Positions 1 through 64,000 are shown, counted from the first letter of the stretch. The stretch: DNA of 64,000 nucleotides from Candidatus Nomurabacteria bacterium (GCA_020632415.1 JACKFO010000002.1:322732-386731), one strand, 5' to 3'. Notes: a model not told the origin generated them from the letters alone. Program-made: numbers and translations.

Positions 1-591
1 CTTAACTAAAGATTTATGAATAGAAATATAAAGCTGAACGTTTTTTTCTCTTTCTCTCAAAGTATCACCACTGAACTTGACTCGTGGCTTGACCATCTGA
101 TACATCGTTTCAATCACGCTATCTTCAATGTCCTCTGGATTCAAAAGCATGTCGATTTCACAGGCCATCACACCAATGATCCAATCAAAATATTGTTTTC
201 TTTCTTTGCCTTGATAAAGATCATTGAGCATCACAAACAAATCACCGTAGCGACGAATGATCTGCGCCACTTCCAAAATCATTTTTTCTGGAATAGTATT
301 GTTTGGCAAATATTTGGAACGAATCAAATCCTCGATCAAACCTTTGGCAATATGCGGTTTTAAAGTTTCTAGAATCAAACGACGGCGTAAATTTCTTTCA
401 ATTGCAAAACGTCTCAATAAATGAGCCTCTTTAAAATCAACGCTATTGCGTAATTTTTCATAGACAAAAGTCACTCTTGAAGTAATATCTTCAACTTCAA
501 TCTTGTTTTCATCCTCTAAAATTGTACGACGTCTTTGGTAAATTTTGTCCAATTTCTGATACAAATCAACGATACTTGGGGAAATTTCCAT
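1..591 (-). CDS. hypothetical protein, N-terminal 197 codons only (gene runs off left edge)
   Basis: Open reverse frame from ATG (complement of 589-591; MEISPSIVDLYQKLDKIYQRRR...) to position 1 with no stop. It is missing from the ORF track only because it has no in-window stop. Track ORF 16..363(+) is its antisense shadow. Confidence 0.5.
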   Translation of the reverse strand, partial: MEISPSIVDLYQKLDKIYQRRRTILEDENKIEVEDITSRVTFVYEKLRNSVDFKEAHLLRRFAIERNLRRRLILETLKPHIAKGLIEDLIRSKYLPNNTIPEKMILEVAQIIRRYGDLFVMLNDLYQGKERKQYFDWIIGVMACEIDMLLNPEDIEDSVIETMYQMVKPRVKFSGDTLREREKNVQLYISIHKSLVK

Positions 592-661
592 AAAATTTTA
601 TAATATAAATTCAAAGTTAAAATACCATATTTTTCACTTTTTTTCAATCTAGAGAAAAAAT

Positions 662-699
662 AAAAAAATAACCCCCTGAATTAAACTATCAGAGGGGTT
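662..699 (-). terminator. intrinsic terminator after the CxxC protein gene
   Basis: On minus strand AACCCCTCTGA-loop-TCAGGGGGTT (one bulge) followed by a T-run. Confidence 0.6.
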
Positions 700-715
700 A
701 TTTAAATTAACTGAT

Positions 716-1246
716 TTATTTTTTCTTTTTTGCAGCTACTTTTTTAGGAGCTTTCTTAACAGCAGCTACTTTTTTTGTTGTTTTTTTCTTAGGTGTAGTT
801 TTTTCTTCTACTGGAGTAGTTTTTTCTTTTTTTGATTCTACTTTTTCTACTTTAACTTCAGTCTTTGGTTTTGCTTGTAATAAATTAATAATTTGATCAA
901 GCTTGTGATTTAAACCAGACAAAGCATCAGCTAACTGTTTGTTTCCTTGACCACGATCTGATCCACGAGAATCACGAGCTGGTCTACTATCAGATTTTTT
1001 AAAACAATCATTACAATAAATAGGCTTGCCACTTGTTGGGCGAAAGGGAACTTCGCAAGTCGCACCACAACCATCACAAACAGCATTGTGCATTTCTACT
1101 TGACGATCACGATCTCGGCCACCGCCAAAACCACGATCTCTTGAGCCACCAAAATCTCTTCGGCCACCGCCAAAACCACGATCTCTTGAGCCCCGGTCAC
1201 CTCTATCACCACCTGATCTTCTATTATCTCTTTTAAAATTTCCCAT
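716..1246 (-). CDS. CxxC-x17-CxxC zinc-ribbon protein with RGG/RD-rich N-terminus and Lys-rich C-terminus (RNA-binding-like)
   Basis: CDGC followed by exactly 17 residues then CNDC. Repeated DRGFGGG and SRDRG motifs; KKxxKK tail. Directly downstream of a DEAD-box helicase. Confidence 0.7.
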   Translation of the reverse strand: MGNFKRDNRRSGGDRGDRGSRDRGFGGGRRDFGGSRDRGFGGGRDRDRQVEMHNAVCDGCGATCEVPFRPTSGKPIYCNDCFKKSDSRPARDSRGSDRGQGNKQLADALSGLNHKLDQIINLLQAKPKTEVKVEKVESKKEKTTPVEEKTTPKKKTTKKVAAVKKAPKKVAAKKKK

Positions 1247-3883: not shown

Positions 3884-3994
3884 AAAATTTTTGATTATTT
3901 TTAAACTACTCTAATTATCCTATTTTTATTAAGAAAAGTCAAAAGGCTCGCCGATTTTTACTCTTTGAGCCTTTTTCCTAAATCATGCATGACT

Positions 3995-4234
3995 TCACTC
4001 TCCCAAGGCTTTTTTGGCCTGTTGATACTGACGAATCAACCAGAGACTGGCCAACACTCCCAAAACAAAACCGCCGCTCAGGAGCATCGCCAATTCAAGA
4101 TCTAGCACATCTTTGGTCATCGACCAAAACACACCACCCAAACAGCTGAGAGTGGCTATAACCGCCACAACGGAAAAGCCAAACCAATTGCTTTTGACCT
4201 GCTCCAGGTCTTTGAGTTCAGATGCACGTGACAT
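3995..4234 (-). CDS. orphan small membrane protein, 79 aa, two predicted TM helices (G+C-elevated cassette A)
   Basis: ATG at 4232-4234 preceded by GGAGGA with about 7-nt spacing; the track start at 4249 is a TTG extension. Local G+C is clearly above the flanks. Confidence 0.5.
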   Translation of the reverse strand: MSRASELKDLEQVKSNWFGFSVVAVIATLSCLGGVFWSMTKDVLDLELAMLLSGGFVLGVLASLWLIRQYQQAKKALGE

Positions 4235-4343
4235 CAGTCTATCCTCCAAATTGAAGAACCGTCATCTTGCTTTAAGTTTGACACAGAGCAAAAAATTTGT
4301 AAAATAAAAAATCCTCTGAGACCTCAAAGGATTTTTTGCTAAA

Positions 4344-6826: not shown

Positions 6827-7273
6827 CTACTCTTCTAAAATAGTAATAAAAATGTTAATTTTTTCTTTATTTGGTAATTGTAAATTGACTTGATGCTTGC
6901 CCAAGTCTTTCAAGGCAGTAAAATTATCAAACCATTTTTCTTCTACATCTAAATTAAATTTATCTTTTATCTCTCTGATAATATCTGCTTGGTGAATAGC
7001 TTGAAACAAATTTCCTTTTTCTGAAGCTTTGCCTTTAAATTGCAGGCCCTGTTTATTTAAAGTTTTTATTATTTTTTGTTGAGCATTAATTTTTGTTTGC
7101 TCTTGTTTAATAATCTTTTGTTTTCCTTGCTGAATTTTATTGACATTTTGGTTACTAGCCAAAATTGCTTTCTTATTTGGCAACAAAAAATTATTAGCAT
7201 AACCAAAACTAACTTCTTTAATATCCCCTTTTTTACCCAAAGAGCTAATATCTTCCAATAAAACAACTTTCAT
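6827..7273 (-). CDS. rplI: 50S ribosomal protein L9
   Basis: MKVVLLEDISSLGKKGDIKEVSFGYANNFLLP N-terminal domain, 148 aa. Confidence 0.9.
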   Translation of the reverse strand: MKVVLLEDISSLGKKGDIKEVSFGYANNFLLPNKKAILASNQNVNKIQQGKQKIIKQEQTKINAQQKIIKTLNKQGLQFKGKASEKGNLFQAIHQADIIREIKDKFNLDVEEKWFDNFTALKDLGKHQVNLQLPNKEKINIFITILEE

Positions 7274-11345: not shown

Positions 11346-11945
11346 ATGTCAAATCTAACAAAAAAACAAAAAGAAATTTTAGACTTTGTCACTGAATTTA
11401 TTCAAAGCAATGATTATGCTCCTAGCTATCGAGAAATAGCTGACTACTTTGGTCTCTCCTCTACTGCTACAGTCCACGAGCACCTCAAAGCTTTGGAAGA
11501 TAAAGGTCTAATTACCTCCAATCATAACGCGGCGCGTTCTTTAGAGCTTGTTACTCAACGTTTTGGCAAATCAATTGAATTGCCCTTAGTTGGTTTAATC
11601 GCTGCCGGAGAGCCGATTGAGGCGATTCAACAAAATGAATCAATCGATGTGCCTCAAAGCTTTGTTCGCGATGAAAATAGCTATGTTCTAAAAGTCAAAG
11701 GAGAATCAATGATTGAAGAAGGAATTTTGGATGGTGACTATGTAATTGTTGAACGTAATTTTTATCCACGCAATGGTGATGTGGTAGTCGCTCTACTTGA
11801 TAATACTTATGCTACTCTCAAAAAATATTTCCGAGAAGAAAACCGCATTCGTCTTCAGCCAGCCAACCACACCATGAAACCAATCTATGCCAAAAATCCA
11901 GCAATCCAAGGAATAGTCCGAGCAGTATTAAGAAAATTTGTTTAA
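11346..11945 (+). CDS. lexA: LexA repressor (S24 peptidase)
   Basis: N-terminal winged HTH (YREIADYFGLSSTATVHEHLKALEDKG), Ala-Gly cleavage site (IAAGEP), catalytic Ser (VKGESM) and Lys (ATLKKY). Confidence 0.9.
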   Translation: MSNLTKKQKEILDFVTEFIQSNDYAPSYREIADYFGLSSTATVHEHLKALEDKGLITSNHNAARSLELVTQRFGKSIELPLVGLIAAGEPIEAIQQNESIDVPQSFVRDENSYVLKVKGESMIEEGILDGDYVIVERNFYPRNGDVVVALLDNTYATLKKYFREENRIRLQPANHTMKPIYAKNPAIQGIVRAVLRKFV

Positions 11946-13184: not shown

Positions 13185-14102
13185 CTAAACTTTCAAATAT
13201 TTACGAATAGCAATTGAAGTACTCAAAATATTTAATAAGGCTAGAACTGCAAATTGAGTGCCAAAAATTAAGAAAAAATTGGACTGAAAATACTCTGAAA
13301 TATTAATCACATTGACATCTTGAAAATACATTGTTAATGACGGCTGAATAAAATTAATGATCGGGTAAATAATAGCAATTAATAACACTACTGCCGTAAA
13401 AGCATACAGAACGCCTTCCAAAATAAAAGGCATCTTAACAAACCAATTTCCAGCACCCACTAGCTTCATGATCATGATTTCATTTTTGCGACTATAAATA
13501 CTAATTCTGATTGTATTAAAAATGACAACGATCGAAATCAACAAAAATGCACCGATAATATACCAGCTATATTTATTTAATACTTTTGAGAAATTTTCAA
13601 TTTTTCCTACAAAACTATCAAAATCATTAAAATCACTACTATCTACTAAATCCTGATATTTTTCTTGAGAAATTTTATCTAAAATCGTCGTATACTGAGA
13701 AAGCTCATTGCCTTGCACAGCCAAAGAAAAACTAAAAGGATTTTCATCTTCGTCAAAAATATCCAAAACTTTTTTAGCCTTTTCGTCTAAATTTGATTGT
13801 TCATACAAAACTTTATTTTCCTCTGGAGTAATAATTGTCACTTTTTTTACCTCTGCTTGAGAATCCAAATCTGTTGCCAATAGCTCCACTTCTTCTCGGC
13901 TAGCTCCAGGCTTCAAAGAAACTAAAATATCAACTTTTTTATTAACTCCCTCTAGCGTAGCTTCTTTGATATAATCAATTCCAATCAATAAAGTAGTTGA
14001 AAACAAAGCCATCAACATCATTGTAATTGTCACCAAAGATAACCAAAAATTTCTAAAAAATCCTTGGAAAGCAAACTTGATGACTCTAAAAAAACTGATC
14101 AT
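13185..14102 (-). CDS. ftsX: cell division permease-like protein FtsX
   Basis: 305 aa with TM1, an extracytoplasmic domain, then three C-terminal TM helices. Immediately downstream of ftsE. Confidence 0.8.
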   Translation of the reverse strand: MISFFRVIKFAFQGFFRNFWLSLVTITMMLMALFSTTLLIGIDYIKEATLEGVNKKVDILVSLKPGASREEVELLATDLDSQAEVKKVTIITPEENKVLYEQSNLDEKAKKVLDIFDEDENPFSFSLAVQGNELSQYTTILDKISQEKYQDLVDSSDFNDFDSFVGKIENFSKVLNKYSWYIIGAFLLISIVVIFNTIRISIYSRKNEIMIMKLVGAGNWFVKMPFILEGVLYAFTAVVLLIAIIYPIINFIQPSLTMYFQDVNVINISEYFQSNFFLIFGTQFAVLALLNILSTSIAIRKYLKV

Positions 14103-23466: not shown

Positions 23467-23508
23467 TAAAAAAGAAAGCGGTGATCACGTTAGACGCGAC
23501 CACCGCTT
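23467..23508 (-). terminator. terminator of cassette B1
   Basis: Minus strand AAGCGGTG-17 nt-CACCGCTT followed by TCTTTTTT. Confidence 0.5.
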
Positions 23509-23529
23509 GAGAACATCGAAACCAGAAGA

Positions 23530-24513: not shown

Positions 24514-24620
24514 CGCCTTTTCCTCCGCGTTGCTTGATTTTGTTGTTATTTTCTGATTTCGTTTGTGTCAAAGATCGGGAGAACTTCATGTTTAAAAAAA
24601 CATGAAATATCCAACTGTAA

Positions 24621-24649
24621 ACCATACACCAAAATCTATTATTTGTCAA
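24621..24649 (-). promoter_or_regulatory. promoter of cassette B1
   Basis: Minus strand TTGACA (24644-24649), 17 nt, TATGGT (24621-24626). A 5' UTR of about 110 nt contains the palindrome at 24585-24606. Confidence 0.55.
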
Positions 24650-24679: not shown

Positions 24680-24708
24680 TTGACAAATATTTTAAAATAG
24701 TATATAAT
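24680..24708 (+). promoter_or_regulatory. promoter of cassette B2
   Basis: TTGACA 24680-24685, 17-nt spacer, TATAAT 24703-24708. Confidence 0.65.
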
Positions 24709-24753
24709 ACTTTGTTACGTACACTGACAACCAAAACCACACGGAGGAACACC

Positions 24754-25500: not shown

Positions 25501-25529
25501 CCTCCTCCGTGAAGCGCAATTTCAGCGCA

Positions 25530-25571
25530 AGCCCGCCCCAAACTACAGCAGTAGCAAAGGCGGGCTTTTTC
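25530..25571 (+). terminator. terminator of cassette B2
   Basis: AGCCCGCC-21 nt-GGCGGGCT followed by TTTTT. The large loop lowers confidence. Confidence 0.45.
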
Positions 25572-25575
25572 TTTG

Positions 25576-31274: not shown

Positions 31275-31320
31275 AAAATAAAAAGCCCACCACTATTCCC
31301 GAAGGATTTCGTGGTGGGCT
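31275..31320 (-). terminator. terminator of cassette C
   Basis: Minus strand AGCCCACCAC-17 nt-GTGGTGGGCT followed by TTTTTATTTT. Confidence 0.65.
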
Positions 31321-32688: not shown

Positions 32689-32786
32689 GGTCGTTCTCCT
32701 TCATTTCGTTTTTTATTCAATCTTGTTTTCGTTGTCGATGAACAGTCGAACAATCGAGCTTGAAAGCTCAAATTATTCAATATAGA

Positions 32787-32815
32787 ATTATATCACATTT
32801 TTACATTTTTGTCAA
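32787..32815 (-). promoter_or_regulatory. promoter of cassette C
   Basis: Minus strand TTGACA (32810-32815), 17 nt, TGaTATAAT extended -10 (32787-32792). 5' UTR of about 100 nt. Confidence 0.65.
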
Positions 32816-44695: not shown

Positions 44696-44846
44696 AAAAA
44701 ACCGGTCCTTTTGGGACCGGTTTGGAAATTTGAATTAAACACCAAAAATTACCGGTCCAAGAATCGGTTATTATCATTATTATTTGAGTTGTTGTATTTT
44801 TGGTAACCCATATTTATACTTAACTATAAAACTACAATTTTGTCAA
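44696..44846 (-). promoter_or_regulatory. candidate leader-peptide transcription attenuator upstream of tRNA-Asn and asnS
   Basis: On the minus strand: TTGACA (44841-44846); a 20-codon ORF with 7 Asn codons; GGACCGGT (44751-44758) overlapping its stop; ACCGGTCC (44714-44721); GGACCGGT (44701-44708) plus a T-run. The middle element can pair with either neighbour. Confidence 0.5.
44749..44811 (-). CDS. candidate Asn-rich leader peptide MGYQKYNNSNNNDNNRFLDR
   Basis: ATG at 44809-44811, stop at 44749-44751. Codons 7, 8, 10, 11, 12, 14 and 15 are Asn. No SD; possibly leaderless. Confidence 0.4.
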   Translation of the reverse strand: MGYQKYNNSNNNDNNRFLDR

Positions 44847-44852
44847 ATATCC

Positions 44853-44957
44853 CTACCCTTTCTTTAAAAACATGTCCTTAAAACTAAACTCAACTTCATT
44901 TCTTTTAACGTTTGCAAACTCACTTGCTAAATTGACAATAGGTATAATTTTCTTCAT
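44853..44957 (-). CDS. possible leaderless small ORF, 34 aa
   Basis: Minus strand TTGCCA (44988-44993), 17 nt, TAAAAT (44965-44970), 7 nt, then ATG (44955-44957). MKKIIPIVNLASEFANVKRNEVEFSFKDMFLKKG. Confidence 0.3.
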   Translation of the reverse strand: MKKIIPIVNLASEFANVKRNEVEFSFKDMFLKKG

Positions 44958-45001
44958 ATTTTACATTTTACTAGATAAACGACTAATTGGCAAAAGTAAA
45001 T

Positions 45002-45028
45002 AAAAAAAGGTCGACCCGAGGATCGACC
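45002..45028 (-). terminator. terminator of cassette D
   Basis: Minus strand GGTCGA-TCCTCGGG-TCGACC followed by TTTTTTT. Confidence 0.65.
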
Positions 45029-45047
45029 GTGGAAACAATTCAGAAGT

Positions 45048-45119
45048 CAAGATTACACCCCGCCGCGAATAAACCCATAAATCCTATATGGATAACCGTT
45101 AGCAAGATTACACCCCGCC
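45048..45119. repeat. 17-nt perfect direct repeat CAAGATTACACCCCGCC (45048-45064 and 45103-45119)
   Basis: Read directly. One copy contains the stop codon of the cassette D ORF. The other lies 55 nt inside the ORF in a different frame. Confidence 0.9.
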
Positions 45120-45439
45120 AAAATATGCACAAGTACAAGAGCGGGATCATTAAGTAATTTCTGCAAAAAACGCTCAAAATATTCCGGCGTATTTTGATTC
45201 AAACCATCACTTTTCATATCCCTCTCAATCTGATCAAACCTATCATGATGCCACTGAAATAGACGATCAGAATAAACGTACTCCGCATCATCAACACAAT
45301 CCATTCCGAAAGAAAATTTCACTTCAACACCTGAGCTCAAAAAAATAGTCTGTGGCTTCTTGAAACGACGATCAGTGTAATGAGGTTCAAGGCAACCGCT
45401 TTGAAACAATGCCTTTTTGTCGGTGATGCTCAAACTCAT
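45053..45439 (-). CDS. orphan cytoplasmic protein, 128 aa (cassette D, moderately G+C-elevated)
   Basis: GAGGAGG SD 5 nt from ATG 45437-45439 (MSLSITDKKALFQSG...). The track N-terminal extension runs through the promoter and is rejected. Confidence 0.55.
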   Translation of the reverse strand: MSLSITDKKALFQSGCLEPHYTDRRFKKPQTIFLSSGVEVKFSFGMDCVDDAEYVYSDRLFQWHHDRFDQIERDMKSDGLNQNTPEYFERFLQKLLNDPALVLVHILAGCNLANGYPYRIYGFIRGGV

Positions 45440-45500
45440 CTCTACCTCCTCAAAAAATCTTGTGCATTTTTTCTTTTGCTGTGTTAAGAACGAATATATT

Positions 45501-45529
45501 ATAATAACACAAGAATATAAATATGTCAA
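45501..45529 (-). promoter_or_regulatory. promoter of cassette D
   Basis: Minus strand TTGACA (45524-45529), 17 nt, TATTAT (45501-45506). Confidence 0.55.
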
Positions 45530-49733: not shown

Positions 49734-49775
49734 CTGTCAATATGTATTGACAGAAAAGTAAATATATGATATAAA
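49734..49775 (+). promoter_or_regulatory. promoter of cassette E with 20-bp perfect palindrome over the -35 box
   Basis: CTGTCAATA-TG-TATTGACAG at 49734-49753. TTGACA 49747-49752, 17 nt, TGaTATAAA (-10 at 49770-49775). The palindrome also creates a TTGACA on the opposite strand. Confidence 0.6.
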
Positions 49776-49893
49776 AATACATTAATTACGTTCCTTACAA
49801 AGGAGATTGTTATAGTGTCTAGATTAACTAGATCATAGTTAGTTTGCACACTGTAACAGTCTTTCAACAATCCTCAAACAGGAGAACAAAGCC

Positions 49894-49962
49894 ATGTTCA
49901 AAAAGTGGTTTCCTAATCAAAGCAACCAGAGAGAGTCGACGTCTTCAACGCGAGTTGAGTAA
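49894..49962 (+). CDS. possible upstream micro-ORF, 22 aa (MFKKWFPNQSNQRESTSSTRVE)
   Basis: AGGAG 9 nt upstream of the ATG. It ends 17 nt before the main cassette E ORF. Confidence 0.3.
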   Translation: MFKKWFPNQSNQRESTSSTRVE

Positions 49963-49979
49963 GCCTTAAGGAGGGAACA

Positions 49980-50429
49980 ATGAGTCCCAAGACCAAATTT
50001 TACTGCTGGCTGGCGGCGATGACCGTCATCACTCTGACGACTCTTTTTGTTGTCAACGCAGTGAGTGGTAATCCCACATTAGCCATATCCGCCGCATTCG
50101 GCGCGTTCGCTATCACCGTAATAGTCGCGCTCGCTGTCGCCACATCATCTGTCGTGCTCGCCGGACTCATCGCACTCCTGATCGCCAGCGGAGGCGGAGT
50201 GGTCGCGTGCGCTGTCGCACTCCTGATCACCGCCAGAGCCGGAGTGGTCGCGAACGTCGACGCATTCGCCGGACTCGCCGCCGCATCCTTAGCATTCGCC
50301 ATATCCGTCGTAATTATCTTCATCCTTTCTGCTTATAAGAGCACTCTTTCCAAGAGGCATATCCTTCTTTCAATGACGGTGGTATCCATTGTCATCGCCA
50401 CCCCGATGCTCTACCTCGCACTGCAGTAG
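49980..50429 (+). CDS. orphan Ala/Val/Ile-rich polytopic membrane protein, 149 aa (G+C-rich cassette E)
   Basis: AAGGAGGG SD. Almost entirely hydrophobic sequence with an internal duplicated segment. The antisense ORF 50000..50323 is an artefact of high G+C. Confidence 0.55.
   Translation: MSPKTKFYCWLAAMTVITLTTLFVVNAVSGNPTLAISAAFGAFAITVIVALAVATSSVVLAGLIALLIASGGGVVACAVALLITARAGVVANVDAFAGLAAASLAFAISVVIIFILSAYKSTLSKRHILLSMTVVSIVIATPMLYLALQ
50170..50252. repeat. internal tandem duplication (about 45-nt period) inside the cassette E ORF
   Basis: TCGCACTCCTGATC at 50170 and 50215; GGAGTGGTCGCG at 50196 and 50241. Gives peptide IALLIASGGGVVAC / ALLITARAGVVAN. Confidence 0.8.
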
Positions 50430-50463
50430 AACATTGAAACATTGACTGTTTGAAGACCAAAGT

Positions 50464-50499
50464 CCCTCACGTGCACTATGACGTGAGGGCTTTTATTTT
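50464..50499 (+). terminator. terminator of cassette E, T-run overlapping the stop codon of the convergent SDR gene
   Basis: CCCTCACGT-8 nt-ACGTGAGGG followed by CTTTTATTTT. Confidence 0.75.
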
Positions 50500-51203
50500 C
50501 TTTCTAAATGTTGGAACGGATCAACCACTGCTCCGCTTTTGTATTTTTGCTGTTGACTAATTGTTTCGCCAATAATTTGAGCTGTCTCCTCTGGCTGATA
50601 CAAAGCCTGACGTCCTTGTTTAAAAGCTTTTTTAAACAAAGCAGTATTAGTTGCTCCTGGAGTAACTGTCAAAACTTTGACAGTTTTCAAATCTTTGGCC
50701 AAAGATTGACCAAAACCAACCACACCAAATTTTGAAGCACAATACACGGAAAATTCTTTTTTACCTTCCAAGCCAGCGCCAGAGGAAATATTCACAATCA
50801 ATCCTCTGCTCTTTTTTAAATTTGGCAAAAAATATTTTGACATCAAGATTGTTGCCTGCAAATTAACAACTAAGGTTTTGACAATTGCCTGATCTTGATA
50901 AGTTTCTAAAAGACCTGCCAGTGGCACGCCGGCGTTATTTAACAAAACATCAATTCTCTGATTCTTGAGTTTAGTGGCGATTTTTTTTATTTGTTGAACT
51001 TTTTCTAAATCAATGACAAAAGTCTGAATTGTTATCTTTTCTTTTTCGGCTAAAGTTTTGGCTTTTTTTTGCCAAGTTCCTCTTTTTTTATCCAATAGAA
51101 TCAAATCAAAATTATTTTTGGCCAGCCAACAAGCCGTAGCCCAACCAATCCCTTGAGCCGCTCCGGTGATCAAAACTGTTTTGGAAGCTTTTGAAAAAAT
51201 CAT
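50493..51203 (-). CDS. SDR family oxidoreductase
   Basis: VLITGAAQGIGWA cofactor motif, NNAG, and the catalytic S...YCASK pattern. Confidence 0.85.
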   Translation of the reverse strand: MIFSKASKTVLITGAAQGIGWATACWLAKNNFDLILLDKKRGTWQKKAKTLAEKEKITIQTFVIDLEKVQQIKKIATKLKNQRIDVLLNNAGVPLAGLLETYQDQAIVKTLVVNLQATILMSKYFLPNLKKSRGLIVNISSGAGLEGKKEFSVYCASKFGVVGFGQSLAKDLKTVKVLTVTPGATNTALFKKAFKQGRQALYQPEETAQIIGETISQQQKYKSGAVVDPFQHLERK

Positions 51204-53881
51204 AAGTTTTTAACTTTAACTTTTTTATAATAAAAAATAAAAATAGTTTTAATGATTTCAATTGCTAAAATTACTCCCACTAAAAAGACCAAAATTACTC
51301 GCCACTCAGACCAAGTCAAAGGTACGGTGTGCAAAGCTTGATTTAAAAACGGTAGATAAATTGCTGCTAATTGTAAAAATAAACCAAAAACTACAGCTAA
51401 ATTTAAATATTGATTTTGAAAAGGATGGGAAGTAAAAATACTGTGTTTTAAACTACGAATACTAAAAACATAAAATAAAGTATCAAGGCCCAAGGCTGTA
51501 AAGACCACAGTACGAGCTAAGTCTTCGTCACCATGTCGCCAAAACCACCAAAAAATCCACAAACTAGATAAAGCGGTAATCAAACTAATAATAAAAATCA
51601 AAAATTTTCCTTCAAAATCAAGCAAAGTTTTTTTGTTTAATTTAGACTTGGCATTCATCGCCTCTTCATCTTCTGGTTCCATAGTCAAAGCCAAATTTGG
51701 CAAACCATCGCTGACCAAGTTGATCCACAAAATCTGCGCTGTGGCAATCGGCAAAGGCCAACCCAAAAGCATCGCTAAAAAAATTATAATAATCTCTGAA
51801 AAACTATCAGACAATAAATATAAAATAACTTTGCGAACATTATCAAAAATAACTCGTCCTTGCCTGATTGCTGTAACGATAGTTTTAAAATTATTGTCCA
51901 ACAAAACTAGATCTGCTACTTCTTTGGCAACATCCGAGCCAGAAGAAACTGCTACGCCGATGTCGGCTGCTTTCAAAGCCGGTGCATCATTGACGCCATC
52001 GCCAGTCATCGAAACGATCTCTCCTTTTTTTTGCCAAGCTTTAACAATTCTTAATTTATCAGCCGGAGTTACCCGAGCATAGACTTGCACTTCATCGATC
52101 TTTTTTTCTAGCTCAAGATCGCTCATTTTTAATAAATCTTCACCGCCCAAAATATTTTTCTGCTCTATTTTTAAACCCAAATCTTCGGCAATTTTACTGG
52201 CTGTAAATTTATTGTCTCCAGTGATAATAATTGTCTTAATCCCGGCTTTTAAAGCAATTTCAATCGTCTCTTTAGTATCTTGACGCAAAGGATCAGAAAG
52301 ACCCCAAAGGCCAACAAAAATCAAATCATGCGGATTTGTCTGACAAATTTTGATATCTTTTTCTTTCCGAGGAATTAATTTATAAGCTCCAGCTAATACT
52401 CGCAAACCTTCGGAACTTAAATCTTGCCAAACCTTCAAAAAATGATCGCGCTTTGCTTTGTTTAGTTTAACTACTTTATTCTGATTTAAATAAAAGTCTG
52501 AAAATTGAAAAACTTTTTCTGGTGCACCTTTGAAAAAAATAATGTCATGTTGATGGTCATAGCTATGTCTAGTGACCATGTACTTGTATTTTGAATCAAA
52601 AGGAATTTCTTCTTTTCTTCTAAAACGATGTTCTAAATCTTTAATTTTTGCCAGCTGTGAACCAAATAATAACAAGGCTTTTTCTGTTGGGCTGCCCAAG
52701 ACCAACCAATCATCGATCGCATCATTAGGATTTTGCACAGCGGCATCATTACACATCATAGCAATTTGCATCAAACGCTCAATTTCTTTATCTTGTTTTT
52801 GATCTTTCCAAGAGCTGTCGCTTAAGCTAAATAAATGCTGACTAGTAAAAATCTTAGTCACTCGCATCTCTCCTTCAGTCAAAGTACCGGTTTTATCGGT
52901 ACAAATCAAAGTCGTTGAACCCAAAGTTTCTGCTGAAACAAGCTTCCTAACCAAACCGTTGTTTTTCAAAATTCGCTGCATGCCAATCGTCAAAATCATT
53001 GTCACGCCGATCACCAAACCTTCAGGGATTGCTGAAACCGCTAAAGCTACGGCGACAGTAAACATCTCTACTATTGGCTGTCCTTCAACTAAACCTAAAA
53101 AGAAAACAAGCAAAGCAATGACAACAATGATTTTGGTAATATTTTTAGCAAATTGATCAAGATTTTTTTGTAAAGGAGTTTTCTCATCTTCTGTTTCTTT
53201 GAGCAAACTAGTAATTTGACCTATTTCTGTTGCCAAGCCAGTATTTGTCACTATTACTCGCGCGCGACCTTCCACAACCAAAGTGCCCATAAAAACAGAA
53301 TTACTACGTTCAGCTAAAACCGTTCCTTTTTCTAAAACTTTTAGATTTTTTTCCTGCGGCCAAGACTCTCCAGTCAAAGTTGCCTCATTGACTCTAAAAT
53401 TATTTATCTCTAACAATCTTCCATCAGCCGGAACTCTGTCTCCGGCTTGTAAAACAATCAGATCACCAGGAACCAAAAATCTGCTTTCAATTTTTTGTTC
53501 CTGTCCGTCACGAATCACTACACTTTCTTGTTTAACTACTTTGTTTAGTTTTTGTAGCGACTGATTAGCTTTTTTCTCCTGCCAAAAACCAATCACCACA
53601 TTCAAAAGTACTGCCGCAAAAATAACATAAGCGTCTACAAACTCTCCAAAAACAAAGCTAATCAAAGCTGCAATTATCAAAACATAAACCAAAGCACTTT
53701 TGAATTGCGACCAAAACAAACGCCAAGCAGAAAATTTTTCTGCTTGCGCTAAAACATTAAGGTCATGACTATCTTGGCGCTTTTCTGCTTCTTTTTGTTT
53801 AAGGCCAAATTTTGTAGCTTCTAAATTCTGAAAAATTTTATCTAAAGCCAAATGATGCCAAACGATTTTTGTTTTGTGCAT
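51200..53881 (-). CDS. cation-transporting P-type ATPase (Ca2+-ATPase-like, type II)
   Basis: TGES, ICTDKTGTLT, MTGDGVNDAPALK motifs and 10 TM-type topology. Start moved to MHKTKIV (53879-53881). Confidence 0.88.
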   Translation of the reverse strand: MHKTKIVWHHLALDKIFQNLEATKFGLKQKEAEKRQDSHDLNVLAQAEKFSAWRLFWSQFKSALVYVLIIAALISFVFGEFVDAYVIFAAVLLNVVIGFWQEKKANQSLQKLNKVVKQESVVIRDGQEQKIESRFLVPGDLIVLQAGDRVPADGRLLEINNFRVNEATLTGESWPQEKNLKVLEKGTVLAERSNSVFMGTLVVEGRARVIVTNTGLATEIGQITSLLKETEDEKTPLQKNLDQFAKNITKIIVVIALLVFFLGLVEGQPIVEMFTVAVALAVSAIPEGLVIGVTMILTIGMQRILKNNGLVRKLVSAETLGSTTLICTDKTGTLTEGEMRVTKIFTSQHLFSLSDSSWKDQKQDKEIERLMQIAMMCNDAAVQNPNDAIDDWLVLGSPTEKALLLFGSQLAKIKDLEHRFRRKEEIPFDSKYKYMVTRHSYDHQHDIIFFKGAPEKVFQFSDFYLNQNKVVKLNKAKRDHFLKVWQDLSSEGLRVLAGAYKLIPRKEKDIKICQTNPHDLIFVGLWGLSDPLRQDTKETIEIALKAGIKTIIITGDNKFTASKIAEDLGLKIEQKNILGGEDLLKMSDLELEKKIDEVQVYARVTPADKLRIVKAWQKKGEIVSMTGDGVNDAPALKAADIGVAVSSGSDVAKEVADLVLLDNNFKTIVTAIRQGRVIFDNVRKVILYLLSDSFSEIIIIFLAMLLGWPLPIATAQILWINLVSDGLPNLALTMEPEDEEAMNAKSKLNKKTLLDFEGKFLIFIISLITALSSLWIFWWFWRHGDEDLARTVVFTALGLDTLFYVFSIRSLKHSIFTSHPFQNQYLNLAVVFGLFLQLAAIYLPFLNQALHTVPLTWSEWRVILVFLVGVILAIEIIKTIFIFYYKKVKVKNL

Positions 53882-53922
53882 GTTTATATTATACCATAAA
53901 ATGCAGTAATTCATATCTACTA

Positions 53923-53951
53923 TTGACAAATAAATACTTTTATGATAATAT
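53923..53951 (+). promoter_or_regulatory. promoter of cassette F
   Basis: TTGACA 53923-53928, 17 nt, TGaTAATAT (-10 at 53946-53951). Confidence 0.5.
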
Positions 53952-54015
53952 TCAAAATCTAAAATTGTCCTTTTCGCTTTTCAATAACCAATCACCTCAA
54001 GCAACCGGAGCAAAA

Positions 54016-54558
54016 ATGCAAGCCTTTCATGAGTGGTTCGTCCACGAACTCGAGCAACGGCAGAACACGATCGACAATCCCTGTCCGATCGAAGTCGAAG
54101 TCAATGAATCGGGTACGGTACTCGGTACCCTACCCGACAACCTGAAGCCCCTCTTCTTCCTGATGCTCGACCTGATCGATGAGCGCAACGAGTCCGCCAC
54201 CGCGCTCCACGACTGGATCGTGGAACACCCCGGATTCCACCCGGCACACCCCGAAGATGCCAAGCCGGAACTGATCGGGGAATTCCAGGAGAAGAAGATC
54301 AATCACCGAGTCGCCTGCGACAAGCTGAAGACGATCACGTCCTACTTCTGGAGCAGCATCCACCACATCTTCCCCGACAGCCACAACCACAACAAGATGG
54401 AGGTCTGCAAGGACTGGCAGATCGTCTGCGGAGATGATGAAGGTGACATCAAGATCGATATCATCGGCATCGGCGGCATTCCCTCCGACTTCGTCGGTGG
54501 CTCCACCGTCGATCCCTTCGGCGACCTCCTCGGCAGCTTCTTCCGTCGAGGACACTGA
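54016..54558 (+). CDS. orphan acidic His-rich cytoplasmic protein, 180 aa (G+C-rich cassette F)
   Basis: GGAG 5 nt upstream of ATG 54016 (MQAFHEWFVHELEQ...). G/C-ending codons. Three antisense track ORFs here are artefacts of high G+C. Confidence 0.55.
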   Translation: MQAFHEWFVHELEQRQNTIDNPCPIEVEVNESGTVLGTLPDNLKPLFFLMLDLIDERNESATALHDWIVEHPGFHPAHPEDAKPELIGEFQEKKINHRVACDKLKTITSYFWSSIHHIFPDSHNHNKMEVCKDWQIVCGDDEGDIKIDIIGIGGIPSDFVGGSTVDPFGDLLGSFFRRGH

Positions 54559-54590
54559 CGCCTCAACGCAGCAGAAATGATTGGCCACAG

Positions 54591-54627
54591 CCCCAAGTGC
54601 ATCACGCGCTTGGGGTTATTTTTTTAA
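54591..54627 (+). terminator. terminator of cassette F
   Basis: CCCCAAG-11 nt-CTTGGGG followed by TTATTTTTTT. Confidence 0.7.
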
Positions 54628-56610: not shown

Positions 56611-56687
56611 GCGCCTATAGCTCAGCCTGGTAGAGCAGTTGCCTTTTAAGCAAACGGTCGAGGGTTCGAATCCCCCTGGGCGCACCA
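56611..56687 (+). tRNA. tRNA-Lys (UUU), CCA encoded
   Basis: GCGCCTATAGCTCAGCCTGGTAGAGCAGTTGCCTTTTAAGCAAA...GGTTCGAATCC...TGGGCGCACCA. One mismatch each in the anticodon and T stems. Confidence 0.8.
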
Positions 56688-56729: not shown

Positions 56730-56757
56730 TTGACAAAATAAATAAGTAGTATAAACT
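56730..56757 (+). promoter_or_regulatory. promoter of micro-cassette G1
   Basis: TTGACA 56730-56735. Best -10 is TAAACT at 56752-56757 (16-nt spacer). Weaker than the other cassette promoters. Confidence 0.4.
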
Positions 56758-56811
56758 TAATAAGTAAAATAAGTCCTTCCACCCGTCCATCTTAAACCAA
56801 GGAGGTATGCC

Positions 56812-56898
56812 ATGCATGCCAACCACGCCCCGCCCACGATGAGCACCGATCTCGTTTCGCCCCTGCGCCGTCAGCTCAAGAGCACCGAAATCGTCTAG
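56812..56898 (+). CDS. micro-ORF G1, 28 aa (MHANHAPPTMSTDLVSPLRRQLKSTEIV)
   Basis: AAGGAGG 6 nt upstream. G+C-rich. Shares KSTEIV and the flanking DNA with G2. May instead be a small RNA. Confidence 0.4.
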   Translation: MHANHAPPTMSTDLVSPLRRQLKSTEIV

Positions 56899-56935
56899 AG
56901 CCACCAAGGCAGACGAGGCTATTGAGCTTCACCTA

Positions 56936-56966
56936 CGGCTCGCGCCACGCGCGAGCCGCTTTTTTT
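56936..56966 (+). terminator. terminator of G1
   Basis: CGGCTCGCGC-CAC-GCGCGAGCCG followed by CTTTTTTT. 39-nt block nearly identical to the G2 terminator. Confidence 0.85.
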
Positions 56967-56975
56967 ATCCAAAGT

Positions 56976-57004
56976 TTGACAAAATTAGAAATATATCATA
57001 AAAT
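56976..57004 (+). promoter_or_regulatory. promoter of micro-cassette G2
   Basis: TTGACA 56976-56981, 17 nt, TAAAAT 56999-57004. Confidence 0.55.
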
Positions 57005-57102
57005 AAAAACTCAAGGAGTGTGAGTATTCTCAAGACTGACTTGGGAATCTCCCTCAACAACCATCAACCGTGGCTGTCCGCAAGGACGAAAGGAGCCGGT
57101 CT

Positions 57103-57201
57103 ATGAAGACCCCCTGCACCGCCATCATCACCCAGAAGAGCACGGAGATCGTGCAGACCACCGAGAAGAACGGCCAGCTCAAGGCCATCGAGCAGATCTA
57201 G
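57103..57201 (+). CDS. micro-ORF G2, 32 aa (MKTPCTAIITQKSTEIVQTTEKNGQLKAIEQI)
   Basis: AAAGGAG 6-7 nt upstream. G+C-rich with G/C-ending codons. 5' UTR of about 95 nt. Confidence 0.45.
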   Translation: MKTPCTAIITQKSTEIVQTTEKNGQLKAIEQI

Positions 57202-57247
57202 CTCCAGCGGGAGTAAATCACTCGAAGCCAAGAAGCTGAAACACCCA

Positions 57248-57278
57248 CGGCTCGCGCCACGCGCGAGCCGCTTTTTTT
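57248..57278 (+). terminator. terminator of G2
   Basis: Same CGGCTCGCGC-CAC-GCGCGAGCCG + T-run as G1 (one mismatch over 39 nt including flanks). Confidence 0.85.
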
Positions 57279-57366
57279 ATTGCATAAATTGTGTTTAAAC
57301 TGTCAATAAAATTGCCTTGAAAAAAGCTAAAAAATAAGGTAAGCTAACTCTACTAAAACAGGCTTT

Positions 57367-60182: not shown

Positions 60183-60211
60183 TTGACAAAATATATATTA
60201 TATGATATAAT
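60183..60211 (+). promoter_or_regulatory. promoter of cassette H
   Basis: TTGACA 60183-60188, 17 nt, TGaTATAAT (-10 at 60206-60211). Confidence 0.65.
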
Positions 60212-60260
60212 ACCAAAGAATTGGACATTTTCACAACAAAAGCAGCAGTTGGAGGAAATC

Positions 60261-60737
60261 ATGAATTGGCGAAAAATTGCACTTCTGTGCCTACTTCTTG
60301 CTTTGCCGATGTGGATGCTGATCCGTTCTATGCTGCCTTCGCAGTCAGTTATGGAACAGCTCCAGGAGATCGCCGATCGAACTCCCATTCACTTCGCTTT
60401 GTTGGTCGATGGACAGAGAATCGAGTATTTCGGCTTTGCCATCGATACCAGCACAGCAGCGGATACGAGTTTCGTCGAAAATCTCTACTTCTACGATCAA
60501 GTCGTGATCTGCAACATTCCAGGAGAGAACCAGTACCTCGAAGTACTCAAGGACACCCTGGATACGATCGACCCTCTGGGCACAGTCAAAGATCACGCTC
60601 CATTGGTCGGAGGCGACTACATCATCGAAGCCTACGATGCTTGGACGGATTCCCTCAAGTTCAGAGCGCGAATTCGCGCCGAACACATTGACGGAGAACC
60701 GTACATCTTCGATGATCAGAACCTTGTCAACAACTGA
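60261..60737 (+). CDS. orphan secreted or membrane-anchored protein, 158 aa (G+C-rich cassette H)
   Basis: GGAGGA SD 6 nt from ATG 60261. N-terminal hydrophobic segment MNWRKIALLCLLLALPMWML. G/C-ending codons. Overlapping track ORFs 60221..60691(+) and 60345..60746(-) are rejected. Confidence 0.55.
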   Translation: MNWRKIALLCLLLALPMWMLIRSMLPSQSVMEQLQEIADRTPIHFALLVDGQRIEYFGFAIDTSTAADTSFVENLYFYDQVVICNIPGENQYLEVLKDTLDTIDPLGTVKDHAPLVGGDYIIEAYDAWTDSLKFRARIRAEHIDGEPYIFDDQNLVNN

Positions 60738-60758
60738 CGCCCCCAATCCCCCCGGATC

Positions 60759-60810
60759 GATCCCGGCACAACACAGCAGCAGCTGTCGCGTGTCGGGATC
60801 ATTTTTATTT
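60759..60810 (+). terminator. terminator of cassette H abutting the sufU stop codon
   Basis: GATCCCGGCAC-20 nt-GTGTCGGGATC (one G-U pair) followed by ATTTTTATTT. Confidence 0.6.
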
Positions 60811-61207: not shown

Positions 61208-61212
61208 ATGCG

Positions 61213-62430
61213 TTAAATAAATTTCTGATTAATTTTTTCTAATTCCCTAATAAAAATATCAATTTCTTCTTTAGTGTTATAAAAAGCAAGACTTGCTCTC
61301 ACAGTCGCGGGCACTTGCAAAAAATCATGTAAAGGTTGTGTGCAGTGCTGACCAGCTCGAAGAATAATTCCTGCCTCTCCTAATAAATCACCAACATCAT
61401 GAGCATGTACATTTTTTAAATTAAAAGCAAGGCTGGACAAATGATTTTCTACTATTTGTGGACCATAAATTTCCACGAAATCTAAATTTTGTAATTGTTG
61501 CAATAAATATTCTGTCAGTTCTTTTTCAATTTTTGCAATCTGATCCAAACCAAAATCATTGACAAAATCTATCGTCGCCCCATAAGCCACTACATCAGCA
61601 ATATTTGGCGTACCAGCCTCAAACTTATGTGGTAATTCATTAAGTGTAAAGTGATCTAAAAATACATCGGCAATCATATCACCGCCACCCAAAAATTCTG
61701 GCATTTCTTTTAACAATTCTTCACCGGCATATAAAACGCCAACGCCAGTTGGACCAAACATTTTATGAGCTGAAAAAGCTACGAAATTTGCACCTAAATT
61801 TTGGACATCAATTTTCTGATGAGCGATAACTTGCGCCGCGTCTAACAAAACTTTAATTCCTTTGCTTTGCGCTAGCTTGATTAGATCACTGATCTCATGA
61901 ACATTGCCCAAAGTATTTGAAGCCATTTGCAGGCTCAAAAATTTCACACCTGCTTGAGAAATTAATTCTTTGGCCTGTTTTAAGTCTAAATTTCCTTCTG
62001 GATCCAAAGTAATAAAAACTAATTCAATGCCAATTTCTTTTTTTAATTGTAACCAAGGTACGATATTTGAATGATGCTCAAGTATCGACAAAACTACCTT
62101 ATCACCTGCTTTTAAAAAATGCTGGCCATAAGTTTTGGCTACCAAATTAATACTCTCGGTAGTATTACGAGTAAAAACTATTTCCTTTTTATTTTTAGCG
62201 TTGATAAATTTTGCTACTTTTTCTCTAGTTGCCTCATGCATTTCAGTAGCTCTATCAGCTAAAGGATTTAAACCGCGATGAATATTAGAATTGTGCTTCT
62301 GATAAAAATCAACTAAAGCATCGATCATCACCTGTGGTTTTTGGGTAGTTGCAGCATTATCAAAATAAACCAGAGGCCGATCATTAATCTTGGTTTCTAA
62401 AATCGGAAACAGACTACGAATTTTGTTCAT
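61213..62430 (-). CDS. sufS: cysteine desulfurase, SufS subfamily
   Basis: PLP lysine FSAHKMFGPTG, catalytic RAGQHCTQP; 405 aa. Confidence 0.92.
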   Translation of the reverse strand: MNKIRSLFPILETKINDRPLVYFDNAATTQKPQVMIDALVDFYQKHNSNIHRGLNPLADRATEMHEATREKVAKFINAKNKKEIVFTRNTTESINLVAKTYGQHFLKAGDKVVLSILEHHSNIVPWLQLKKEIGIELVFITLDPEGNLDLKQAKELISQAGVKFLSLQMASNTLGNVHEISDLIKLAQSKGIKVLLDAAQVIAHQKIDVQNLGANFVAFSAHKMFGPTGVGVLYAGEELLKEMPEFLGGGDMIADVFLDHFTLNELPHKFEAGTPNIADVVAYGATIDFVNDFGLDQIAKIEKELTEYLLQQLQNLDFVEIYGPQIVENHLSSLAFNLKNVHAHDVGDLLGEAGIILRAGQHCTQPLHDFLQVPATVRASLAFYNTKEEIDIFIRELEKINQKFI

Positions 62431-63238
62431 AAAATTTTATTTTATTCAATAAATTATCTAATCTATTCTTAATTTCCGGATGATTAATTTTTACAGTTAA
62501 TTTATCTAGCAAACTTTGCCAGATTAATTTTTTGATCTGAGCTTCTGTCAAAGCACGATTTTGTAAATAAAAACTTTGTTCTGGACTTAAATGACTAATT
62601 TTTGCGGCATGCGAGGCTTTGACTTGATTTGGCTCAACGGACAAACCAGGCGTTAAATTAACTTTAGCCTCTTTTGACCAAATAAAAGCTTCCATTTCCA
62701 AACGGGCTTCTGTATTAATCGCTGCTTTTTTAATCAATAAATCACTAAAATAATTAATCCTGGCTCGATCATCAGCCAAAGTTATGATTTTAATACTTCC
62801 TTCGCCAGCCGGATAAAGAAAATTATTATTTTCTTGCAAACTAAAATGCAAATCATTATTCAAATAAACAAAAACTTGATGCTCTAAATGACTATGACTA
62901 TCTAAATACTGATTTAAACTAAGCTCAGCTGGACTTTGTAAATAAAAATAATAATTATGTAAAACACTATTAATTCCTAATTTGATAACTCTTGCTTCAG
63001 AAAAAAGACTGCCTTGTTGATTTAAAACAAAAACATAGTCTACCAAAACATTATCTTTGATAATAATTTCTGTTTTAAGTTTTTGCTTAAGCTGACTTTC
63101 TTGATCAATCAATTCAAAAACTAAACAGTCTTCACTTAAAACAATTTGTTCTTGCTGTTTTCTGCTACTCTGATCAATGATAATTATTTTTTTATTCAAC
63201 ATATAATTATCCAACGCTCCCTTCCATTTCCAGTTCAA
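62414..63238 (-). CDS. sufD: Fe-S cluster assembly protein SufD (short form)
   Basis: Position between sufB and sufS. C-terminal ISHLSPEQSFYLQNRALTEAQIKKLI motif. Confidence 0.75.
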   Translation of the reverse strand: MNWKWKGALDNYMLNKKIIIIDQSSRKQQEQIVLSEDCLVFELIDQESQLKQKLKTEIIIKDNVLVDYVFVLNQQGSLFSEARVIKLGINSVLHNYYFYLQSPAELSLNQYLDSHSHLEHQVFVYLNNDLHFSLQENNNFLYPAGEGSIKIITLADDRARINYFSDLLIKKAAINTEARLEMEAFIWSKEAKVNLTPGLSVEPNQVKASHAAKISHLSPEQSFYLQNRALTEAQIKKLIWQSLLDKLTVKINHPEIKNRLDNLLNKIKFYEQNS

Positions 63239-64000
63239 TCATTCGATTCATTTCTACTGCGTATTCTAGTGGCAATTCTCGAGTAATTGGCTCAATAAAA
63301 CCATTGACAATCATCTTAGCTGCCTCTTCTTCAGAAAGCCCGCGTGAACGTAAATAAAAAATATCTGTTTCTGAAATTTTTCCAGCCCTTGCTTCGTGAG
63401 CAATGGTTGCCGTTGGATTATCAATCTTCATTTGCGGTATAGTTTCTGTTTTTGAATCATCATCAAGAAGCAAAGCATCGCAATTAACCGTTGCTTTGAT
63501 ATTATCTGCTTTGCCTTTAACTTCTAACAAACCGCGGTAAATAGATTTTCCACCGCCACGGCTAATACTTTTCATCACTATATTTGAACTGGTTTCTGAT
63601 GCTAGGTGAATTACTTTTGCGCCAGTGTCTTGAATTTGCCCAGAGTTAGCAAAGGCCAAGCCCAAATGATCAGCCGAAGCTCCTCGGCCAAGTAAAACAG
63701 AACAAGGATAAAGCATGGTCACATTGGAGCCAAAATTTCCGCCAACCCATTCCATGTGAGCATTTTCAGAAACCATTGCTCGTTTGGTATTCAAATTATA
63801 AGCATCTTTACTCCAACTTTCGACACTACTATAACGAAATCGTGCATTATCTTTGACGTAAATTTCTACACAACCAGCATGTAAAGAATCAACACCATAA
63901 CGTGGCGCCGAACAACCCTCGATATAATGTCCTTGAGCATCACTTTCGATGATAATTAAAGTATGTTCAAATTGTCCCATACCTTTGGCATTCATTCGAA
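63207..64000 (-). CDS. sufB: Fe-S cluster assembly protein SufB, C-terminal part (gene continues beyond right edge)
   Basis: GQFEHTLIIIE..., FYLRSRGLSEEEAAKMIVNGF. The frame stays open to position 64000, so the track Met at 63995 is not the true start. Confidence 0.88.
   Translation of the reverse strand, partial: RMNAKGMGQFEHTLIIIESDAQGHYIEGCSAPRYGVDSLHAGCVEIYVKDNARFRYSSVESWSKDAYNLNTKRAMVSENAHMEWVGGNFGSNVTMLYPCSVLLGRGASADHLGLAFANSGQIQDTGAKVIHLASETSSNIVMKSISRGGGKSIYRGLLEVKGKADNIKATVNCDALLLDDDSKTETIPQMKIDNPTATIAHEARAGKISETDIFYLRSRGLSEEEAAKMIVNGFIEPITRELPLEYAVEMNRMIELEMEGSVG

Follow-up and report, generated by a model that had tools for sequence, protein, structure and literature searches.

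Strong Shine-Dalgarno sites on single-gene cassettes, but not on backbone genes, in a Candidatus Nomurabacteria genome

Why would neighboring genes on one bacterial chromosome have two different kinds of translation start? This question is raised by a 64,000-nucleotide stretch of the genome of a Candidatus Nomurabacteria bacterium (GCA_020632415.1, JACKFO010000002.1:322732-386731), which we call the window; all positions are counted from its first letter. Its backbone consists of housekeeping genes, and between these lie short units that we call cassettes and label A to H. A first-pass annotation, made from the sequence alone, had claimed that the cassette genes carry strong Shine-Dalgarno (SD) sites and that the backbone genes almost never do. 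It took this as a sign that the cassettes have a different evolutionary origin or a distinct mode of translation, and it raised the question of whether the 16S rRNA still carries a functional anti-SD.

All 11 of the cassette open reading frames (ORFs) that were considered (A, B1, B2, C, D, the E micro-ORF, E, F, G1, G2, and H) have an SD followed by an ATG, with a spacer of 5-9 nt. The SD takes the form GGAGG, AGGAG, AAGGAGG, or GGAG, and the coordinates of every one were checked. We computed the energy of the SD duplex against the anti-SD core ACCUCCUUU. The median energy was -9.3 kcal/mol for the cassette ORFs and +0.5 kcal/mol for the backbone (48 starts). With the cut-off set at -6 kcal/mol, 9/10 cassette starts passed, but only 1/48 of those in the backbone did (Fisher p = 9e-9; Mann-Whitney p = 1e-6). 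(Cassette D, with the SD GAGGAGG, joined the set after this test, hence n = 10.) There are only 33 occurrences of GGAG in the 5.2 kb of cassette coding sequence, so GC-richness alone cannot put GGAG in the correct 8-nt window 11 times. We confirmed that the SD dichotomy is real and well beyond chance.

The pattern holds for all of the cassette ORFs and for 47 of the 48 backbone starts. The lone exception is a DacA-like gene (38524-39426), whose SD motif lies inside the preceding gene and is missing from seven orthologues. The contrast also survives a different choice of start codons: if alternative in-frame starts are allowed (within the first 40 codons), then the SD rate of the backbone is the decoy rate. 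The same split was seen when 2.1 Mb of related sequence (137 loci) was scanned. Where the GC content of a gene was within 3 points of that of its locus, an SD was present in about 5% of cases (decoys, 2-3%); genes that exceeded their locus by more than 6-9 points had one in 20-37% of cases, a class that is diluted by spurious ORFs.

The cassettes share a common plan: an AT-rich promoter that resembles TTGACA-N16-18-TATAAT, a leader of 40-110 nt, the SD, the ATG, a GC-rich ORF, and a GC-rich hairpin followed by a run of T. There are about eight such units, which, measured from promoter to terminator, occupy 11% of the window (about 7.2 kb). They form GC islands (0.47-0.61, versus 0.36 for the backbone). 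In the parts of the window that were scanned for promoters and terminators, the only 12/12 promoter matches were those of B2, C, H, and tRNA-Lys (D and G2 score 11/12), and the cassette terminators rank among the best terminator matches. The features are as follows.

Backbone, 1-64000, both strands: about 48 housekeeping genes, all with an ATG start, and six tRNAs.
Cassette A, 3941-4304, minus strand: ORF 3995-4234 (79 amino acids, two hydrophobic helices), SD GGAGG at 4243-4247, hairpin at 3941-3976; GC 0.49; weak promoter (TTTACA-N18-CAAACT).
Cassette B1, 23476-24649, minus strand: promoter 24649-24621, leader of about 100 nt, SD GGAGG at 24522-24526, ORF 23530-24513, terminator 23508-23476; the product has 327 amino acids, with a signal peptide and then a predicted all-beta protein (low confidence; AlphaFold predicted local distance difference test score, or pLDDT, of 43).
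Cassette B2, divergent from B1, 24680-25575, plus strand: promoter 24680-24708, SD GGAGG at 24743-24747, ORF 24754-25500, terminator at about 25529-25575; 248 amino acids, signal peptide.
Cassette C, 31278-32815, minus strand: promoter 32815-32787 (extended -10), leader of about 92 nt, SD AGGAG at 32696-32700, ORF 31339-32688, terminator 31322-31278; 449 amino acids, several transmembrane helices, weak SPFH/Band_7 match.
Cassette D, 45009-45529, minus strand: promoter 45529-45501, SD GAGGAGG at 45445-45451, ORF 45053-45439 (128 amino acids), terminator 45028-45009; the GC content of the ORF is just 0.40, yet the SD is strong.
Cassette E, 49747-50498, plus strand: promoter 49747-49775, SD AAGGAGG at 49968-49974, main ORF 49980-50429 (149 amino acids, several transmembrane helices), terminator 50464-50498.
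Cassette F, 53923-54626, plus strand: promoter 53923-53951, SD GGAG at 54007-54010, ORF 54016-54558, terminator 54589-54626; 180 amino acids, acidic.
Cassette G1, plus strand (G1 and G2 together span 56730-57279): promoter 56730-56757, SD AAGGAGG at 56799-56805, ORF 56812-56898 (28 amino acids), terminator 56936-56967.
Cassette G2, plus strand: promoter 56976-57004, SD AAGGAG at 57090-57095, ORF 57103-57201 (32 amino acids), terminator 57248-57279.
Cassette H, 60183-60809, plus strand: promoter 60183-60211 (extended -10), SD GGAGG at 60251-60255, ORF 60261-60737, terminator 60759-60809; 158 amino acids, N-terminal anchor.

Upstream of the main ORF of E lies a micro-ORF of 22 codons (49894-49962; SD AGGAG at 49880-49884) that stops 17 nt before the main ORF. 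From this arrangement, the micro-ORF could provide control of the leader-peptide type. The membrane-protein ORF of E also contains a 45-nt tandem duplication (50170-50259, 80% identity). The 39-nt terminator modules of G1 and G2 (56930-56968 and 57242-57280) are 97% identical, and the remainder of the two units does not align, although both peptides contain the motif KSTEIV. Apart from this terminator copy, we found no boundary repeats, attC-like sites, or repeat pairs of the type seen with diversity-generating retroelements at the cassettes. No known RNA family matched the cassette leaders, even at E ≤ 1.

The cassettes are a separate class, as the first-pass annotation had suggested, and by more than their SDs: their leaders are long, each unit is framed by a promoter and terminator of its own, and they differ from the backbone in composition. 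The dichotomy is also seen in related genomes. The GC content at codon positions 1, 2, and 3 is 0.55, 0.41, and 0.61 for the cassettes and 0.47, 0.33, and 0.26 for the backbone. Within single units, the GC content at third positions (GC3) reaches 0.79 in F, 0.81 in B2, 0.79-0.82 across B2, F, and G1, and 1.0 in G2. A is found at 0.14 of third positions in the cassettes versus 0.33 in the backbone. Of the cassette genes, 9/11 end with TGA or TAG, while 37/47 of the backbone genes end with TAA. The predicted folding energy of the region from -30 to +30 is -9.0 kcal/mol for cassettes and -4.3 kcal/mol for the backbone.

From their sequences, the cassettes encode orphan proteins, most of which are secreted or sit in the membrane: 6/10 have a signal peptide or a transmembrane helix. 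No Pfam family was found above its curated cut-off (C alone has the weak Band_7 match), and there were no matches in PHROG or PADLOC. In a collection of 5.8 billion proteins, B1 has four homologues and C has one (range 1-6 across the cassettes that were searched), and a profile search found just six relatives. The AlphaFold model of B1 was too poor for a fold search. We also rejected a phage origin for the cassettes, as four scans of viral contigs found no relatives.

Public annotation mishandles the cassettes, because the call for C is truncated at its N terminus and A is uncalled in a Logan assembly. The NCBI protein for C has 345 amino acids, while the SD-led start (31339-32688) gives 449, and a 454-amino-acid orthologue backs the full length. 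A (3995-4234) is not called as a gene on Logan contig L166.

Related loci, which we refer to by our own labels, bear on the age of the cassettes. Backbone DNA is 68-78% identical to that of the lake metagenome-assembled genomes (MAGs) L001 and L002, and the gaps in the alignment fall precisely at the F, G, and H slots, which in the relatives are occupied by units built on the same plan. At the H slot, three species can be aligned over the promoter, some of the leader, and the SD; the three proteins have no significant similarity to each other. B1 has orthologues in L081, L083, and L084; B2 has orthologues in L083 and L084, where it is kept as the divergent partner of B1; and C has an orthologue in L082. 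The B1 and B2 orthologues adjoin CAP, cadherin-like, Dus, and CorA genes, and the C orthologue lies between mutM/SdpI and DUF5663. Where the context could be read (B1 homologues P0002 and P0003, and C homologue P0007), homologues lie in the same neighborhoods, have a GC content of 0.47-0.54, keep the SD, and are flanked by low-GC genes that lack one. Orthologous leaders have kept the -35, the -10, and the GGAGG block, and the remainder has diverged.

Between lineages, the identity of B1 at 4-fold degenerate sites is 0.31-0.34, as compared to an expected 0.28, so these sites are near saturation, and GC3 is still 0.53-0.58 in three lineages. GC3 of B2 is maintained at 0.72-0.81 at 42% protein identity. 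Judged by this synteny, the cassettes do not look like recent insertions, because the slots for B1, B2, C, F, and G/H are syntenic in related species, with the SD retained and, in most cases, the high GC content as well.

Turnover is also apparent. We found no homologues of D or E in the closest relative (L086, a JGI contig), and the G slot is empty in L003. F has a homologue in the same slot in L002 and another, in a different slot, in L086. The latter gene (L086 3687-4163) occupies the E slot of L086, the nearest relative by AsnS, and is distant (26% identity to window 54016-54558, with a common C-terminal motif, WQIV...IGxGG), so cassette families move or duplicate between slots. The tRNA-Lys by dnaB (window 56611-56687; L001 136-236; L003 9339-9420) has one orientation in the window and L002 and the opposite one in L001 and L003, so the G-slot region rearranges. 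A strict automatic detector of whole units, which misses about half of the known cassettes in the window, picked out 19 more complete units, a lower bound, in 19 other loci, with a density that is apparently highest in this genus.

Could the dichotomy be the transient footprint of recent horizontal transfer from GC-rich donors that use SDs? The atypical GC content, codon usage, and stop codons of the cassettes and their orphan proteins might be explained this way, as might the lack of D and E homologues in L086 and the empty G slot in L003. A distant relative from the candidate phyla radiation (CPR) has a GC-rich and SD-led block that encodes PurC, PurE, PurH, and PurB (L008 4368-9375). This block looks like a transferred metabolic module, and it has the same signature as the cassettes, so in this clade the combination of high GC and SD also marks genes that appear to be foreign. 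Nevertheless, we consider recent transfer to be unlikely, given that most slots are syntenic across near-saturating divergence, that H, B1, and C each share a homologous promoter and leader with their counterparts in other species, and that no donors turned up among the 5.8 billion proteins. The suggestion of a different evolutionary origin therefore stands insofar as the cassettes are a distinct class, but synteny argues against a recent arrival.

We propose instead, and think slightly better than an even bet, that two initiation modes coexist in this organism: native genes that do without an SD, and long-resident accessory units, probably foreign, that depend on one. Native mRNAs would initiate without SD pairing, from short, weakly structured, and G-depleted leaders of about 90% A/U, with A-rich sequence from -11 to -3, U at -1, and few AUGs nearby. 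The cassettes would be insulated units, each with a near-consensus promoter of the sigma-70 type, a canonical SD, GC3-rich codons, and a strong intrinsic terminator. They may ultimately have been acquired from GC-richer sources that use SDs; foreign entry is probable because of the analogy to the pur block of L008 and because of their codon and stop-codon usage. They would have settled in fixed intergenic slots before the related species split, and their coding parts would since have diverged or been swapped very fast. Because their mRNAs are GC-rich and structured, they may need pairing between SD and anti-SD for recruitment of the 30S subunit; if so, the ribosome would still have a usable anti-SD. 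High GC3 might be kept by selection on mRNA stability or structure, by repeated replacement from an external pool via the conserved flanks, or by biased gene conversion at loci that are prone to recombination.

Several results weigh against this proposal. For none of the cassettes did we find a donor lineage or viral relatives, and the cassette promoters are AT-rich and look native. Neutral amelioration would not be expected to leave GC3 high while divergence nears saturation, so an extra force (selection, biased conversion, or repeated replacement) must be invoked. GC content is also not uniformly retained: the F orthologue in L002 has a GC3 of 0.44, versus 0.79 in the window. Both this gene (GC 0.42) and D (GC 0.40) keep a strong SD, so the SD cannot be explained by GC-driven structure alone. 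Within backbone genes, SD-like motifs are not clearly avoided (GGAGG, z = -1.0; AGGAG, z = +1.2). Finally, a search for the 3' end of the 16S rRNA came up empty: there is no 16S gene in the window, and conserved 16S motifs are absent from 165 related loci.

The last point matters because of the lineage. By its protein relatives, the host is a Parcubacteria-type CPR bacterium. The relatives of its DnaB and AsnS all come from Parcubacteria-type MAGs of the Patescibacteria/CPR (those with names belong to Falkow-, Magasanik-, Moran-, and Uhrbacteria), and the nearest are lake MAGs at 86-87% amino acid identity. Two of the cassette proteins are identical to NCBI entries from Candidatus Nomurabacteria bacterium (H6761_01720 and H6761_01745). 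The window also encodes bL9 (6827-7273) and the repressor LexA (11346-11945), and having bL9 is consistent with Parcubacteria and not with Microgenomates or Saccharibacteria (PMC9297842).

Tsurumaki et al. (2022, PMC9297842) reported the CCTCCT motif in the 16S rRNA of only 48% of Parcubacteria, and found that the lineages without the motif overlap those without uL1. Our search for literature on SD use, anti-SD, or leaderless translation in Patescibacteria turned up only this study, which examined rRNA and not mRNAs. Those Parcubacteria without an anti-SD belong to the same broad group as our host and would fit its SD-free backbone. One might then suppose that the anti-SD of our host has been lost or is permanently hidden, and that the cassette SDs are inert relics or are read by a special subpopulation of ribosomes or under a special condition. 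The complete lack of conserved SDs on native genes would be expected, as would the lack of clear SD avoidance inside genes, and there is a precedent in Bacteroidia, where the anti-SD is sequestered and the SD-bearing rpsU is translated by ribosomes that lack bS21 (PMC7797042, PMC9976891). The proteins that sequester the anti-SD there, bS21, bS18, and bS6, are not encoded in the window. We doubt this explanation. Orthologous leaders that differ elsewhere retain the SD core at the same spacing, which indicates purifying selection on the SD in these organisms, and the SD of every cassette ORF is at canonical spacing. The conserved cassette SDs argue that this lineage keeps a functional anti-SD.

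Two leaders contain an extra AAGGAG near their predicted 5' end, remote from the start codons (57013-57018 in G2 and 49800-49805 in E). These recall the 5' SD-like elements that stabilize mRNAs in Gram-positive bacteria. By this analogy, if they are functional, they would be further evidence that the 30S subunit binds via its anti-SD.

By analogy to the flavobacterial ribosomes that lack bS21, the cassettes might also form an SD-gated regulon, that is, a separate translation channel that is possibly open only when the anti-SD is exposed. The fast-evolving and mostly secreted or membrane-bound products would then plausibly be host-interaction factors of an episymbiont, and selection for a separate channel would keep the composition of the cassettes distinct through speciation. 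In a more extreme variant, the signals and codon usage of the cassettes would be tuned for expression in a GC-richer host cell. We regard the gated regulon as quite a long shot.

If backbone genes do not use an SD, what do their starts look like? In the window, the region from -15 to -1 is about 92% A/T, with A at 60-68% from -8 to -5 and T at 72% at -1. We also examined 629 starts in low-GC related loci, each pinned by a nearby upstream stop codon. As a group, these starts also lack SDs. G drops to 3-9% in their vicinity, A makes up about 50% of positions -11 to -3, and position -1 is T in 74% of cases. ATG occurs 53 times at -15 to -3, as compared to 104-119 times for permuted trinucleotides, but this depletion is partly imposed by the rule for selecting starts. 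Backbone start regions also fold weakly (a mean of -4.3 kcal/mol from -30 to +30, versus -8.5 kcal/mol inside the same genes).

The first-pass annotation had noted -10-like hexamers about 7 nt upstream of some ATGs and read these as a hint of leaderless mRNAs. The example that it gave, TTGCCA-N17-TAAAAT-N7-ATG at 44993-44955, is exact, and this unit is a reasonable candidate for leaderless expression of a 35-amino-acid ORF, judging from the promoter-like elements.

Candidate leaderless unit, 44853-44993, minus strand: TTGCCA-N17-TAAAAT (44993-44965), 7 nt, and the ATG of a low-GC ORF of 35 amino acids (44957-44853).

This ORF has no SD, and its -10-like element lies about 7 nt before the ATG. 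It is one of two tiny low-GC ORFs (35 and 20 amino acids; 44749-44957, minus strand) between cassette D and tRNA-Asn, and both are candidate leaderless small proteins.

As a general rule for the backbone, in which the SD would be absent because there is no 5' untranslated region, leaderless translation is very improbable. A few candidates have a -10 hexamer at this distance of 5-9 nt from the ATG (44993-44955, 38003-38491, 51200-53882, 13185-14102, and 61213-62430). Among backbone genes, 5/49 have such a hexamer, which is the chance rate in AT-rich DNA, as about six were expected from the density of hits. Where good -10 hexamers are visible, they are mostly 22-35 nt upstream of the ATG, which implies short A/U-rich leaders. 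Also, many backbone genes are internal to operons, and the position-specific context (A-rich, with U at -1) reaches upstream of the ATG.

That the dichotomy is an artefact of chimeric assembly, contamination, mis-called starts, or chance GGAG is hardly credible: although the genome was assembled from a metagenome and GC-rich DNA does have more GGAG, the same units are found in independent assemblies (Logan contigs L085 and L166, lake MAGs L001 and L002, and JGI contig L086), NCBI gene calls match for B1 and F, and the background density of GGAG is far too low.

The SD-free side of our proposal has a counterpart in Bacteroidia, where native genes lack SDs and initiation is SD-independent, as in Flavobacterium johnsoniae (PMC6847099, PMC7797042, PMC9976891). 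As in Bacteroidia, the backbone has no SDs, its start regions are A-rich and weakly structured, and a minority of genes has strong SDs; AUG is depleted near the start in Bacteroidia, and the depletion of ATG near our starts is similar but is in part imposed by how the starts were selected. From their sequence context, backbone starts resemble this SD-independent initiation rather than leaderless translation. However, the organism belongs to the CPR; its start context is U at -1 and A from -11 to -3, instead of A at -3; and its SD minority is a whole class of GC-rich accessory units, instead of rpsU.

The cassettes are similar in layout to phage morons, which are single genes between backbone genes, with their own promoter and factor-independent terminator and an odd base composition (PMC3594210). 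The cassettes likewise have one gene, their own promoter and terminator, and a GC content of 0.47-0.61 as compared to 0.36, and they are accessory. Morons are often related to the surface or to host interaction, and cassette products are mostly secreted or membrane proteins. Unlike morons, the cassettes are chromosomal, are flanked by housekeeping genes, have no PHROG or viral-contig relatives, and sit in slots that are conserved across species.

Under the Lawrence-Ochman model, horizontally acquired islets reportedly undergo amelioration. The GC content, codon usage, and ribosome-binding signals of the cassettes are atypical for the host, as in such islets, but GC3 stays high at near-saturated synonymous divergence and the promoters look native. 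The cassettes also differ from genomic islands in being single-gene units with no integrase, repeats, or targeting of tRNAs. We found no island mobility genes or donor, and cassette homologues are confined to syntenic CPR contexts. Integron gene cassettes have an attC site, lie in an array beside an integrase, and are generally promoterless. Our cassettes are also small, mostly single-gene, compositionally odd, and accessory, with fast turnover, but they have no attC-like repeats, there is no integrase among the annotated genes, and they have their own promoters and are dispersed rather than arrayed. Overall, the combination of backbone and cassettes is a variation on known systems: Bacteroidia-like starts with a different context, and moron-like units outside of phage.

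The GC content of the window is 36%, most of the genes are on the minus strand, and a search for rRNAs in the window found none. Pfam agrees with the backbone gene names in the first-pass annotation, and identifies CTP synthase, bL9, a MurA-type enzyme, PEGA, LexA, bL27, FtsX, TPR, FBA, TIM, ScpA/B, AspS, AsnS, ArgS, a P-type ATPase, and SDR. Further backbone genes were identified from public contigs that overlap the window: CAP, cadherin-like, Dus, CorA, FtsE, MutM, DnaB, YbaB, RecR, bL21, and Suf. One giant gene encodes 1,699 amino acids. A gene for a zinc-finger protein (716-1246) contains a 45-nt tandem repeat at 1115-1204, with copies that are 87% identical.

For gene calling, the dichotomy means that start models that are trained on one class will mis-call the other. 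Together, SD and GC3 give a marker, from sequence alone, for accessory and probably host-interaction genes in uncultured Patescibacteria. The cassettes also pose a puzzle: what holds GC3 at 0.5-0.8 in single genes of a genome with 36% GC, over saturating divergence? And they make the use of the anti-SD by Parcubacteria testable; if the anti-SD is missing or sequestered, then something else, conditional or external, would have to read the cassette SDs. If the pattern is genome-wide, then about a tenth of the genome would be a second class of genes, conserved in position and hypervariable in content, with its own rules for transcription, initiation, and codon usage.

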